Positions 8,769-16,376 of a stretch of DNA of 64,000 nucleotides are shown here, piece after piece. This stretch comes from Escherichia coli (GTDB lineage: Bacteria; Pseudomonadota; Gammaproteobacteria; Enterobacterales; Enterobacteriaceae): NCBI RefSeq assembly GCF_048403405.1, contig NZ_CP183129.1; one strand, given 5' to 3'. Below the pieces are notes generated by a model, which was given only the letters and a program-made list of their open reading frames with translations, was not told where the DNA came from and did no database searches. The stretch's first letter is position 1; the number at the start of each line of letters is the position of its first letter. A program made the position numbers and the translations under genes.

Positions 8769-8799
8769 TTGACCTTCCCCTTGCTGGAAGGTTTAACCT
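8769..8799 (+). promoter_or_regulatory. copA promoter with CueR (MerR-type) operator: -35 TTGACC, 19-bp spacer containing dyad CCTTCC-N7-GGAAGG
   Basis: TTGACCTTCCCCTTGCTGGAAGGTTTAACCT read directly 41-71 nt upstream of the copA ATG. Confidence 0.8.
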
Positions 8800-8839
8800 T
8801 TATCACAGCCAGTCAAAACTGTCTTAAAAGGAGTGTTTT

Positions 8840-9051
8840 ATGTCACAAACTATCGACCTGACCCTGGACGGCCTGTCCTGCGGTCACTGCGTTAAACGCG
8901 TGAAAGAAAGTCTCGAACAGCGCCCGGATGTTGAGCAGGCGGATGTGTCTGTCACTGAAGCGCACGTTACCGGGACTGCCAGTGCAGAACAGCTGATCGA
9001 AACCATCAAACAAGCGGGTTATGACGCATCTGTAAGCCACCCAAAGGCTAA
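8840..9051 (+). CDS. copA: CopA(Z) copper chaperone, 70 aa, produced by programmed -1 ribosomal frameshift within copA
   Basis: Slippery heptamer C-CCA-AAG at 9040-9046 (codons 68-69); the -1 frame reads CCC AAA GGC TAA, ending ...SHPKG. Confidence 0.75.
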
Positions 9052-11344
9052 ACCGCTGGCGGAGTCATCAATCCCGTCGGAAGCACTGACAGCGGTTTCT
9101 GAGGCGCTTCCGGCAGCGACCGCCGATGACGATGACAGCCAGCAGTTGCTGCTGAGCGGCATGAGCTGCGCCAGCTGTGTCACCCGCGTACAAAATGCGC
9201 TGCAAAGCGTACCGGGCGTCACTCAGGCACGGGTAAACCTGGCGGAGCGTACTGCGCTGGTGATGGGCAGTGCCTCCCCACAAGATTTAGTGCAGGCGGT
9301 GGAAAAAGCGGGCTACGGCGCGGAAGCGATTGAAGATGACGCTAAACGCCGCGAGCGCCAGCAAGAAACCGCCGTCGCTACGATGAAGCGCTTCCGCTGG
9401 CAGGCGATTGTCGCACTGGCGGTGGGTATCCCGGTGATGGTCTGGGGGATGATCGGCGATAACATGATGGTCACCGCCGACAACCGCAGCCTGTGGTTGG
9501 TTATCGGCCTGATAACCCTGGCGGTAATGGTTTTCGCCGGCGGGCATTTTTACCGCAGTGCATGGAAAAGCCTGCTGAACGGCGCGGCGACAATGGATAC
9601 GCTGGTGGCGCTGGGTACGGGCGTGGCGTGGCTCTATTCGATGAGCGTCAACCTGTGGCCGCAGTGGTTCCCGATGGAAGCGCGACATCTTTATTACGAA
9701 GCCAGCGCGATGATTATCGGTCTGATCAATCTCGGCCATATGCTGGAAGCGCGCGCGCGTCAGCGTTCTTCTAAGGCGCTGGAGAAATTACTCGATTTAA
9801 CCCCACCGACGGCGCGCCTGGTCACTGACGAAGGTGAAAAAAACGTGCCGCTGGCAGATGTTCAGCCAGGTATGTTACTGCGCCTGACGACCGGCGACCG
9901 TGTGCCGGTAGATGGTGAGATTACTCAAGGCGAAGCGTGGCTGGATGAAGCGATGCTGACGGGCGAACCTATCCCGCAGCAAAAAGGCGAAGGCGATAGC
10001 GTCCATGCCGGGACAGTGGTACAGGACGGCAGTGTGCTGTTTCGTGCCAGTGCGGTCGGCAGCCATACTACGCTGTCACGGATCATTCGCATGGTGCGAC
10101 AGGCCCAGAGCAGCAAGCCAGAAATCGGTCAACTGGCGGATAAAATCTCCGCCGTGTTTGTGCCGGTAGTGGTAGTCATTGCGCTGATCAGTGCGGCAAT
10201 CTGGTATTTCTTTGGTCCGGCACCGCAGATTGTCTATACCCTGGTGATTGCCACCACGGTGCTGATTATCGCCTGTCCGTGTGCGCTAGGACTGGCGACG
10301 CCGATGTCGATTATTTCGGGCGTCGGGCGGGCGGCTGAGTTTGGTGTGCTGGTGCGGGACGCCGACGCGCTGCAACGCGCCAGTACGCTCGACACCGTGG
10401 TGTTCGATAAAACCGGGACGCTGACCGAAGGGAAGCCGCAGGTTGTCGCAGTAAAAACATTTGCTGATGTTGATGAAGCGCAAGCATTGCGTCTGGCGGC
10501 GGCGCTGGAGCAAGGTTCCAGCCACCCGCTGGCACGGGCGATCCTCGATAAAGCAGGTGATATGCAGCTACCGCAGGTCAACGGTTTCCGCACATTGCGC
10601 GGGCTGGGTGTGAGCGGTGAAGCAGAAGGTCATGCGTTGTTGCTGGGTAATCAGGCGTTGTTAAATGAGCAACAGGTTGATACCAAAGCTATCGAAGCGG
10701 AGATTACTGCTCAGGCATCGCAAGGGGCAACGCCTGTGCTGCTGGCGGTTGACGGGAAAGCGGTAGCCCTGCTGGCTGTACGCGATCCGTTGCGTAGTGA
10801 TAGCGTGGCGGCGCTGCAACGCCTGCATAAAGCGGGATATCGTCTGGTGATGCTAACCGGGGATAACCCAACCACCGCCAATGCGATCGCCAAAGAAGCA
10901 GGGATTGATGAGGTGATAGCCGGGGTGCTACCGGACGGTAAAGCCGAAGCGATCAAACGTCTGCAAAGTGAAGGACGTCAGGTGGCAATGGTGGGCGACG
11001 GCATTAACGACGCGCCAGCGCTGGCTCAGGCGGATGTCGGTATTGCGATGGGTGGCGGCAGTGATGTTGCCATTGAAACCGCGGCGATTACCCTGATGCG
11101 CCATAGCCTGATGGGTGTTGCAGATGCGCTCGCGATTTCCCGCGCAACGCTGCGCAATATGAAGCAGAACCTGCTCGGCGCGTTTATCTACAACAGTATC
11201 GGTATTCCGGTCGCCGCCGGTATTTTGTGGCCGTTCACTGGAACACTGCTTAACCCGGTGGTTGCCGGAGCGGCAATGGCGCTCTCGTCGATTACCGTAG
11301 TGAGTAACGCTAACCGGTTGCTGCGGTTTAAACCGAAAGAGTGA
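8840..11344 (+). CDS. copA: Cu(I)-exporting P1B-type ATPase CopA (834 aa)
   Basis: Complete ORF; two N-terminal metal-binding motifs (GLSCGHC, GMSCASC), CPC and DKTGT motifs. Confidence 0.95.
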
Positions 11345-11435
11345 TTGGTATTTACTTAATGCGTTTGTGAGATCCAGTTCTTGTTGCGCTCCTTTTATGA
11401 GTCATGCCATATAAAGTGACTGGCGCAGGGAGCGC

Positions 11436-11467
11436 GCAGGGGGCGGCCAATCGCCGCCGCCCCCTGC
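11436..11467. repeat. Perfect 12-bp GC-rich hairpin (GCAGGGGGCGGC / GCCGCCCCCTGC, 8-nt loop) within a GC-rich non-coding segment
   Basis: Read directly; no U-tract on either side, so not a canonical terminator. Confidence 0.6.
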
Positions 11468-11772
11468 ACCCCCGGGCTCTGGCGAACAAAATCGCCGCTG
11501 CGCGGTACCCTCAGCTTATCCCTTGCGGCTACCGGGTCGGGCGCGAGGTAACATCCCTGTAAAACGCGCCCTCAGCCCACATCCATGTGGGCTGCCCCGG
11601 CCTTCAGGGAACGCCTCGGCGATTTTGACGCCACCAACACCGGTGCAGTCTTTCGTTTCAAAGCAAAAACAATTTTTCGATCATATTTAAGCTACCACTG
11701 AACAAGCCTCATAACTCCATTTGCGCCATCCCTCCCCGCGCGCTAGCATGATATTTCACAAAGGGAGGTCGT

Positions 11773-12567
11773 ATGGATCTGTTGTACCGGGTAAAAACGC
11801 TTTGGGCCGCGCTGCGCGGTAATCATTACACCTGGCCTGCTATCGATATCTCTCTTCCCGGCAATCGCCATTTTCATCTGATTGGCAGTATTCATATGGG
11901 CAGCCACGATATGGCTCCCCTGCCCACCCGTTTGCTCAAAAAGCTCAAAAACGCCGATGCGCTGATCGTCGAGGCGGATGTTTCCACCAGCGATACGCCT
12001 TTTGCTAATTTGCCTGCCTGCGAGGCGCTGGAAGAGCGCATTAGCGAGGAGCAACTCCAAAACCTGCAGCACATTAGCCAGGAGATGGGCATTTCTACCT
12101 CACTCTTTTCTACCCAACCGCTGTGGCAAATCGCGATGGTTCTTCAGGCGACGCAGGCACAAAAACTGGGGCTGCGGGCAGAATACGGTATCGATTACCA
12201 GCTATTGCAGGCGGCGAAGCAACAACATAAACCCGTGATTGAACTGGAAGGGGCTGAAAACCAGATTGCCATGTTGCTCCAGCTCCCTGACAACGGACTG
12301 GCGCTGCTGGACGATACGCTGACCCACTGGCACACCAATGCACGGTTGCTGCAACAAATGATGAGCTGGTGGCTGAATGCGCCGCCGCAAAATAATGAAA
12401 TAACGCTGCCTAATACGTTCAGTCAGTCGCTGTATGATGTGCTGATGCATCAGCGAAATCTCGCCTGGCGGGACAAATTATGCGCCATGCCGCCGGGGCG
12501 CTATGTGGTCGCAGTCGGTGCACTACACCTGTATGGAGAAGGGAATTTGCCGCAGATGTTGCGCTAA
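11773..12567 (+). CDS. ybaP: TraB-family protein YbaP (264 aa)
   Basis: Complete ORF with AGGGAGG RBS; sequence recognisable. Confidence 0.9.
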   Translation: MDLLYRVKTLWAALRGNHYTWPAIDISLPGNRHFHLIGSIHMGSHDMAPLPTRLLKKLKNADALIVEADVSTSDTPFANLPACEALEERISEEQLQNLQHISQEMGISTSLFSTQPLWQIAMVLQATQAQKLGLRAEYGIDYQLLQAAKQQHKPVIELEGAENQIAMLLQLPDNGLALLDDTLTHWHTNARLLQQMMSWWLNAPPQNNEITLPNTFSQSLYDVLMHQRNLAWRDKLCAMPPGRYVVAVGALHLYGEGNLPQMLR

Positions 12568-15155: not shown

Positions 15156-16376
15156 ATGGCAATGAGTGAACAAACCCAGCCTGTGGCGGGCGCGGCTGCG
15201 TCAACGACCAAGGCCCGAACATCGTTTGGTATTTTAGGTGCTATCAGCCTCTCACATCTGCTGAACGACATGATCCAATCGCTGATTCTGGCGATTTATC
15301 CGCTGCTTCAGTCAGAATTTTCTCTGACATTTATGCAGATTGGCATGATAACCCTCACCTTCCAGCTCGCCTCTTCGCTACTGCAACCAGTGGTCGGCTA
15401 CTGGACCGATAAATATCCGATGCCGTGGTCGTTGCCAATTGGCATGTGCTTTACCTTAAGTGGTCTGGTGCTGCTGGCGCTGGCGGGCAGTTTTGGCGCA
15501 GTTCTGCTGGCGGCGGCGCTGGTCGGTACCGGTTCATCGGTCTTTCATCCGGAATCTTCTCGCGTGGCCCGTATGGCGTCCGGCGGGCGGCATGGCCTGG
15601 CACAATCTATCTTTCAGGTCGGCGGCAACTTTGGCAGCTCCCTGGGCCCCTTGCTGGCGGCGGTGATTATCGCGCCTTATGGCAAAGGCAACGTTGCCTG
15701 GTTTGTGCTTGCGGCACTGCTGGCGATCGTGGTGCTGGCGCAAATCAGCCGCTGGTACTCGGCACAGCACCGAATGAATAAAGGAAAACCCAAAGCGACG
15801 ATTATCAATCCACTGCCGCGCAACAAAGTGGTACTGGCGGTCAGCATTCTGTTAATCCTCATTTTCTCGAAATATTTCTATATGGCGAGCATCAGCAGCT
15901 ATTACACCTTTTATCTGATGCAAAAATTCGGATTATCTATCCAGAATGCCCAGCTTCATCTGTTTGCCTTCCTGTTTGCCGTTGCGGCAGGTACGGTGAT
16001 CGGCGGGCCTGTAGGGGATAAAATTGGACGGAAATATGTGATTTGGGGCTCTATCCTCGGCGTTGCGCCGTTTACGCTGATTTTACCCTACGCCAGCCTG
16101 CACTGGACGGGGGTTTTAACGGTGATTATTGGATTTATCCTCGCTTCGGCATTCTCTGCCATTCTGGTCTACGCTCAGGAGCTACTTCCGGGACGTATCG
16201 GTATGGTTTCTGGACTCTTTTTCGGTTTTGCTTTTGGCATGGGAGGTCTGGGAGCAGCAGTTCTGGGGCTTATCGCCGATCACACCAGCATCGAGTTAGT
16301 CTATAAAATCTGTGCTTTCCTGCCACTATTGGGGATGTTGACCATATTCCTGCCTGATAACCGGCATAAAGACTGA
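15156..16376 (+). CDS. fsr: Fosmidomycin resistance MFS transporter (406 aa)
   Basis: Complete ORF; 12-TM MFS-like sequence recognisable. Confidence 0.9.
   Translation: MAMSEQTQPVAGAAASTTKARTSFGILGAISLSHLLNDMIQSLILAIYPLLQSEFSLTFMQIGMITLTFQLASSLLQPVVGYWTDKYPMPWSLPIGMCFTLSGLVLLALAGSFGAVLLAAALVGTGSSVFHPESSRVARMASGGRHGLAQSIFQVGGNFGSSLGPLLAAVIIAPYGKGNVAWFVLAALLAIVVLAQISRWYSAQHRMNKGKPKATIINPLPRNKVVLAVSILLILIFSKYFYMASISSYYTFYLMQKFGLSIQNAQLHLFAFLFAVAAGTVIGGPVGDKIGRKYVIWGSILGVAPFTLILPYASLHWTGVLTVIIGFILASAFSAILVYAQELLPGRIGMVSGLFFGFAFGMGGLGAAVLGLIADHTSIELVYKICAFLPLLGMLTIFLPDNRHKD

Follow-up and report, generated by a model that had tools for sequence, protein, structure and literature searches.

The closest described counterpart of the element analyzed here is the programmed -1 ribosomal frameshift in the copA gene of Escherichia coli K-12 (Meydan et al. 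2017, Mol Cell 65:207; Drees et al. 2017, Mol Microbiol 106:635), which involves the same gene, heptamer, -1 stop and 70-aa product, denoted CopA(Z). In the literature, copA is described as undergoing efficient -1 frameshifting that yields a 70-aa putative chaperone (PMC5009743), by a mechanism in which a slippery sequence is combined with an mRNA pseudoknot and the nascent chain as stimulators (PMC7558416). According to another source, the copA frameshift is well backed by ribosome profiling, with a density drop in E. coli copA, its independent confirmation is credited to Drees et al. 2017, and the refuted part is only the extension to human ATP7B (PMC9548414). These same three papers report the 70-aa protein as made in K-12 (PMC5009743; PMC7558416; PMC9548414). 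Single-molecule assays with the copA pseudoknot and with two variants of its stems showed stalling of ribosomes that scales with frameshift efficiency (PMC6182138), and CopA(Z) is regarded as a copper chaperone (PMC6771820; PMC6747150).

Two other known systems are similar to copA in different respects. The dnaX gene of E. coli (tau/gamma) also involves a chromosomal -1 shift, with an X-XXY-YYZ heptamer ending in AAG (tRNA-Lys) and a downstream RNA structure, and its product is likewise shortened, terminating about one codon past the shift. The dnaX heptamer is A-AAA-AAG, the downstream structure is a stem-loop instead of a pseudoknot, and the stimulators include an upstream internal Shine-Dalgarno sequence. 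No conserved Shine-Dalgarno-like element was seen upstream of the copA site, and copA is reported to use the nascent chain in place of this stimulator (PMC7558416). The two genes have been named together as E. coli cases of -1 frameshifting (PMC10861913). The second relevant system is the stand-alone CopZ of Enterococcus hirae and Bacillus subtilis which, like CopA(Z), consists of one HMA domain, about 70 aa long and equipped with a CxxC motif, and delivers Cu(I) to CopA; in contrast, CopA(Z) is encoded inside copA, with no separate gene.

The DNA analyzed here is a 64,000-nt stretch of the E. coli contig NZ_CP183129.1 (hereinafter, the window) which contains the following features of the copA locus.

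8769..8799, + strand: copA promoter with a CueR (MerR-type) dyad, ACCTTCC-N7-GGAAGGT, recognized by sequence and identical to K-12
8840..11344, + strand: copA, encoding zero-frame CopA, a Cu(I)-exporting P1B-type ATPase (834-aa ORF, ATG at 8840)
8840..9051, + strand: CopA(Z) coding region, read in frame 0 at 8840-9046 and then in the -1 frame at 9046-9051, with the product ending in ...SHPKG
8879..8890, + strand: CxxC copper-binding motif C14-G-H-C17 of metal-binding domain 1 (MBD1), invariant in all orthologues
9040..9046, + strand: slippery heptamer C-CCA-AAG in the X-XXY-YYZ phase, with codons 68-69 in the P and A sites
9049..9051, + strand: -1 frame stop TAA, one codon past the shift, as given by translation from 9040

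The cassette lies in the gene of the Cu(I) P1B-ATPase CopA, which carries two HMA domains at its N-terminus. The ORF matches the NCBIfam equivalog NF007952 over residues 1-834 (1749.9 bits, cutoff 1316), and the Pfam matches comprise HMA twice, E1-E2_ATPase and Hydrolase. In 5422 of 5426 complete E. coli genomes, the locus falls under the annotation 'copA: copper-exporting P-type ATPase CopA', with an identity of 95-100%. Upstream of the gene, the elements TTGACC (8769-8774) and TAACCT (8794-8799) are separated by a 19-bp spacer, with the dyad in between; from established knowledge, we take this region to be the CueR-dependent PcopA. A generic sigma-70 scan, which allowed spacers of 16-18 bp, called no promoter at 8769..8799, as expected because the spacer here is 19 bp long.

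Direct reading of the sequence agrees with the first-pass annotation, which had placed C-CCA-AAG at codons 68-69 of copA: codon 67 is CAC (9038-9040), codon 68 is CCA (9041-9043) and codon 69 is AAG (9044-9046), with the heptamer in the phase that had been given for it. The -1 reading proposed there, CCC AAA GGC UAA, is reproduced by translation from 9040, which gives CCC AAA GGC TAA, that is, P K G and a stop; base 9046 is read twice, and the product consists of M1 to K69 followed by G70, 70 aa in total. This product had been claimed to contain the first metal-binding domain and does hold a complete HMA domain (Pfam PF00403, residues 8-62, 52.1 bits against a cutoff of 24.8) that covers positions 3-62 of the 62 in the model and includes the CxxC motif. 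CopA(Z) stays below the NCBIfam cutoffs for CopZ (60.4 vs 85 bits for NF047957, 39.4 vs 95 for NF033794 and 38.1 vs 91 for NF033795), and its best NCBIfam match is the N-terminus of the CopA model; its nearest solved small relatives are 2roe and 3fry. CopA(Z) works like CopZ, yet is the MBD1 of CopA by descent. Transcriptional slippage at this site was considered and rejected, the A-run being only 3 nt long.

The heptamer as such is not unusual. The window contains 4 copies of CCCAAAG, whereas 8.4 ± 3.0 are expected, so that the bare motif is no more frequent than it would be by chance, and the case rests on context and conservation. This lack of over-representation fits an explanation under which the heptamer and the stop co-occur by chance and any constraint on this segment comes from another overlapping function, such as a pause for MBD1 folding or membrane targeting, with no productive frameshift. 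Among the 4 copies, that in copA alone has the X-XXY-YYZ phase relative to a real long ORF; the heptamers at 15789 and 21084 fall in phase 0 of the respective ORFs, and that at 11800 runs antisense to ybaP. It is the joint occurrence of the phase, the immediate -1 stop, the position at a domain boundary, the downstream pseudoknot and the conservation across genera that goes beyond chance; the last two of these are addressed below.

Alignment with K-12 MG1655 indicates that the window is identical to this genome from 8952 to beyond 9200, a span that takes in codons 39-69 with the heptamer, followed by the -1 stop and some 150 nt further downstream, including the whole RNA structure. In the K-12 RefSeq record, a two-piece joined CDS of the same extent, 212 nt from the copA start, is annotated as 'soluble Cu(+) chaperone' (YP_009518752.1); this curated annotation also speaks against a chance origin of the site. 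Together, the identity and the joined CDS support the earlier suggestion that the site matches the described CopA(Z) mechanism. All differences from the K-12 cassette are upstream, and none is inside it: two synonymous changes (CTC/CTT in codon 25 and CGC/CGT in codon 28), the I38V substitution in MBD1/CopA(Z) (GTC vs ATC, 8951-8953), which is the only protein difference in the comparison, and an additional A in the 5'UTR, just upstream of the Shine-Dalgarno sequence GGAG (8826-8829, AAAA vs AAA). At the level of sequence, the element in the window is the K-12 copA/CopA(Z) cassette itself, intact and already known. Of 5422 E. coli genomes, 5404 carry the 100-nt cassette with an identity of at least 99%.

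The presence of both I38V and the extra A in the window raises the question of whether the cassette, while intact, differs from that of K-12 in frameshift efficiency or chaperone activity, the more so as the nascent chain is reported to add to efficiency (PMC7558416). Such a difference is very unlikely. Residue 38 is 31 residues away from the P site, and in orthologues with a preserved cassette this position is taken by V, I, L or Q, whereas the last 31 codons, and with them residues 39-69 of the nascent peptide, as well as the heptamer and the pseudoknot, are identical to those of K-12. Furthermore, the 601 nt that carry the extra A and I38V were found at 100% identity in other E. coli genomes; therefore, this is a common allele. 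We infer that frameshifting and synthesis of CopA(Z) proceed in this strain as in K-12; the efficiency, the stimulation by the pseudoknot and the nascent chain, and the chaperone role would be expected to carry over from the literature on the identical K-12 sequence.

Divergence from K-12 further downstream begins in the last codon of copA. The segment between the copA stop (11342-11344, in the GAG TGA end) and ybaP, which starts at 11773, that is, 11345-11772, is unrelated to K-12, where the gap contains three REP-like repeats and ybaQ and spans 795 bp vs 429 bp in the window; no ybaQ ORF was found in the window. Only 351 of the 5426 E. coli genomes contain the full 356-nt version of this segment, and parts of it are repeated within a genome, with a median of 3 and a maximum of 8 occurrences.

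Folding of the RNA downstream of the heptamer, which had been proposed as a check in the first-pass annotation, gave a mixed outcome. The plain minimum free energy fold of 9047-9130 (-30.1 kcal/mol, z = -0.99) is no more stable than those of shuffled sequences and lends no support, whereas the pseudoknot-aware scan and the comparative data do. The plain fold is uninformative because the stimulator is a pseudoknot, which is invisible to nested folding. The scan was for H-type pseudoknots, with stem 1 starting 3-9 nt after the heptamer, and used ViennaRNA duplex energies of the two stems. The best candidate pairs 9053-9058 with 9090-9095 (S1) and 9076-9084 with 9106-9114 (S2), so that its arms are as follows.

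9053..9058, + strand: predicted pseudoknot S1 5' arm, CCGCUG, from the scan, with a possible extension in E. coli to 9050-9052 (AAA)
9076..9084, + strand: predicted pseudoknot S2 5' arm, GUCGGAAGC, within the S1 loop, from the scan and the alignment
9090..9095, + strand: predicted pseudoknot S1 3' arm, CAGCGG, from the scan, with a possible extension in E. coli to 9096-9098 (UUU)
9106..9114, + strand: predicted pseudoknot S2 3' arm, GCUUCCGGC, from the scan and the alignment

The summed stem energy of this pseudoknot is -27.1 kcal/mol, compared to -12.8 ± 4.0 for dinucleotide shuffles, only 1 of 300 of which reached this value. The G+C-rich core of S1 is located 6 nt past the heptamer. When CCA occupies the P site, this distance would put S1 at the mRNA entry channel, as is canonical for stimulators of -1 frameshifting, and this spacing is a further argument against a chance origin of the site. 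Thus, the window contains a predicted stimulatory mRNA pseudoknot a few nucleotides downstream of the slippery sequence, and the modelled stems presumably are those of the published copA pseudoknot. Two other helices were tried and rejected: the outer helix of the nested fold (9057-9062 with 9120-9125), for which only 57% of the cells are paired across the orthologues, so that S1 was preferred, and a third helix between GUCAUC (9064-9069) and GAUGAC (9125-9136), where the partner is an Asp-codon sequence with low synonymous conservation. A scan against Rfam 15 at E <= 10 returned only chance-level matches and no family for the copA element.

The stable structure just downstream of the site would also be compatible with a different origin of the protein, namely, that a truncated copA transcript or the proteolysis of CopA is the main source of the MBD1 polypeptide. 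The heptamer would then matter little, and the role of the RNA structure would be in the processing, termination or stability of the transcript. A short transcript may contribute alongside frameshifting, as suggested by the title of Drees et al. 2017. As the main source of the protein, truncation or proteolysis is nevertheless highly improbable. A truncated mRNA that lacks a stop codon would not account for a defined product of 70 aa with a C-terminal Gly. On the + strand at 8840-9500, no hairpin resembling a terminator with a T-run was detected, and ribosome profiling shows the density drop in E. coli copA (PMC9548414). Moreover, the -1 stop is kept one codon past the heptamer while residues 70-71 vary, which only frameshifting explains. 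This last observation comes from the comparison of orthologues.

For this comparison, a protein search and contig retrieval yielded 13 orthologous N-terminal copA sequences which, together with the window, make 14 sequences from at least 9 genera. They come from Citrobacter werkmanii, Enterobacter sp. Bisph1, Enterobacter sp. EA-1, Klebsiella michiganensis, Cronobacter dublinensis, Buttiauxella, Pluralibacter gergoviae, Mixta gaviniae, the loci L089-L092 and a contig with a protein named Salmonella enterica by NCBI; several of these sequences stem from error-prone assemblies. The heptamer CCCAAAG is present in 13 of the 14 aligned sequences, the exception being the Pluralibacter assembly with CCCAAAA, and all 13 sequences with CCCAAAG have a -1 stop, either TAA or TGA, at the same position. 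Thus, at least 8 genera retain the heptamer in this phase together with the -1 stop. The zero-frame residues 70-71 vary among these orthologues (AK, AN, SD, AE and PD), and residue 71 is always K, N, D or E, all of which have codons starting with AA or GA; matches available only as proteins agree with this pattern.

Synonymous codon use also points to a strong constraint that is sharply localized. Among sequence pairs that share an amino acid, in the 10 of the 14 sequences used for this analysis, the codon is also the same in 51% of the cases within codons 1-66; this share rises to 92.5% over codons 67-92 and is 66% over codons 93-112. The best 26-codon window of synonymous constraint begins exactly at codon 67 (Mann-Whitney p = 1e-8). 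The mean pairwise amino acid identity, calculated in an earlier run with 11 sequences that included one frameshifted assembly, is 0.65 in codons 67-92 vs 0.75 in codons 1-66. Amino acid identity is no higher in codons 67-92, and therefore, conservation at the protein level fails to explain the synonymous peak. 

The predicted stems are nearly invariant, with S1 paired in 100% and S2 in 96.8% of the cells across the 14 sequences. The changes that do occur are one-sided and all keep the pairs, those in S2 being U-G to C-G or U-A, G-C to G-U, and A-U to G-U. Two-sided compensatory changes were not found in the 14 sequences, and the covariation statistics are at background because the stems vary so little. 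The predicted RNA structure is supported by conservation and not by covariation.

The lack of two-sided changes can be counted in favor of a chance arrangement or an unrelated overlapping constraint. Against this explanation are the persistence of the heptamer, phase and -1 stop in at least 8 genera, the start of the constraint peak exactly at codon 67, and the published experiments on the identical sequence (PMC9548414, PMC6182138, PMC7558416, PMC5009743). With this evidence, the probability of such an explanation is practically negligible, and the site in the window is very probably the cassette already known from E. coli copA for programmed -1 ribosomal frameshifting.

The 17-nt loop 1 of the modelled pseudoknot (9059-9075, GCGGAGUCAUCAAUCCC) is unpaired in the model yet near-invariant at synonymous sites across genera, with 100% same-codon use at TCA TCA and CCG, and no pairing partner was found for this sequence. 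There is an outside chance that the cassette holds an extra element, for example an undescribed tertiary interaction of loop 1, such as base triples between loop and stem, or else a binding site through which the pump-to-chaperone ratio is adjusted. Alternatively, the pseudoknot model might simply differ from the published one.

Several orthologous loci show peculiar arrangements. The most divergent cassette is that of L089 (1177-1270, GCA_039593615.1, 56% identity to the query), which keeps the heptamer, a -1 TGA and S1 with one U-G pair but has imperfect S2 arms; a pairing of CAGGAG with CUCCUG might replace S2 in this case. In the Pluralibacter gergoviae locus L087 (1198-1220, UGTG01000002.1), the sequence reads CAC CCA AAA AAC TGA, with a zero-frame stop after 70 codons, which divides copA into an ORF of 70 aa and a remainder of 635 aa. 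A protein of the same species (P0056) reads HPKTEPLTE, implying an A5 run, the heptamer C-CCA-AAA and the -1 stop TGA; therefore, L087 carries one extra A, without which it would have TGA at the conserved position of the -1 stop. The extra A could be an error in a homopolymer; alternatively, it is a genuine mutation by which the chaperone becomes the product of the zero frame. In addition, five proteins from Salmonella, other enterobacterial and further public assemblies (P0073, P0078, P0082, P0086 and P0093) are 70-aa gene calls ending in ...PPKG, where upstream indels shift translation to the -1 frame, which then ends at the conserved -1 stop. These calls are artefacts of assembly or mutation and do not represent annotated CopA(Z).

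The CopA of Photorhabdus (71% identity) has neither the linker nor the frameshift site. A scan of a genome collection with full-length CopA included at least 3 Enterobacterales loci among the matches listed, and no comparable site was seen in those of the remaining 77 distant CopA loci, among the matches listed, whose linker could be aligned.

Taken together with the published work, these observations are best explained by the following scheme. A ribosome that reaches codons 68-69 of copA would have its P-site and A-site tRNAs on C-CCA-AAG, while S1, 6 nt downstream, would sit at the mRNA entry channel and resist unwinding. In a fraction of the ribosomes, both tRNAs would then re-pair one base back, on CCC AAA; the shifted ribosomes would read GGC (Gly70), stop at UAA and release the 70-aa CopA(Z), that is, the first HMA/CxxC domain as a free cytosolic Cu(I) chaperone. 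The unshifted ribosomes would make the full 834-aa CopA pump. Both products would be expressed under the CueR-controlled promoter, and therefore, copper would be expected to induce both together.

The comparative results are modest additions to this picture and may largely repeat the analyses of the original paper. They include the constancy of the -1 stop despite the changing residues 70-71, the peak of synonymous constraint in codons 67-92, and the presence of the cassette in Mixta in contrast to its absence in Photorhabdus. The presence of the cassette in this strain is relevant for annotation, as most RefSeq records of E. coli give only copA, without CopA(Z). Altogether, the analysis confirms that the copA frameshift site in the window is real and intact, is present in essentially all E. 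coli and is already known; this strain, as essentially all E. coli surveyed, carries the intact copper arrangement in which two products come from one gene.
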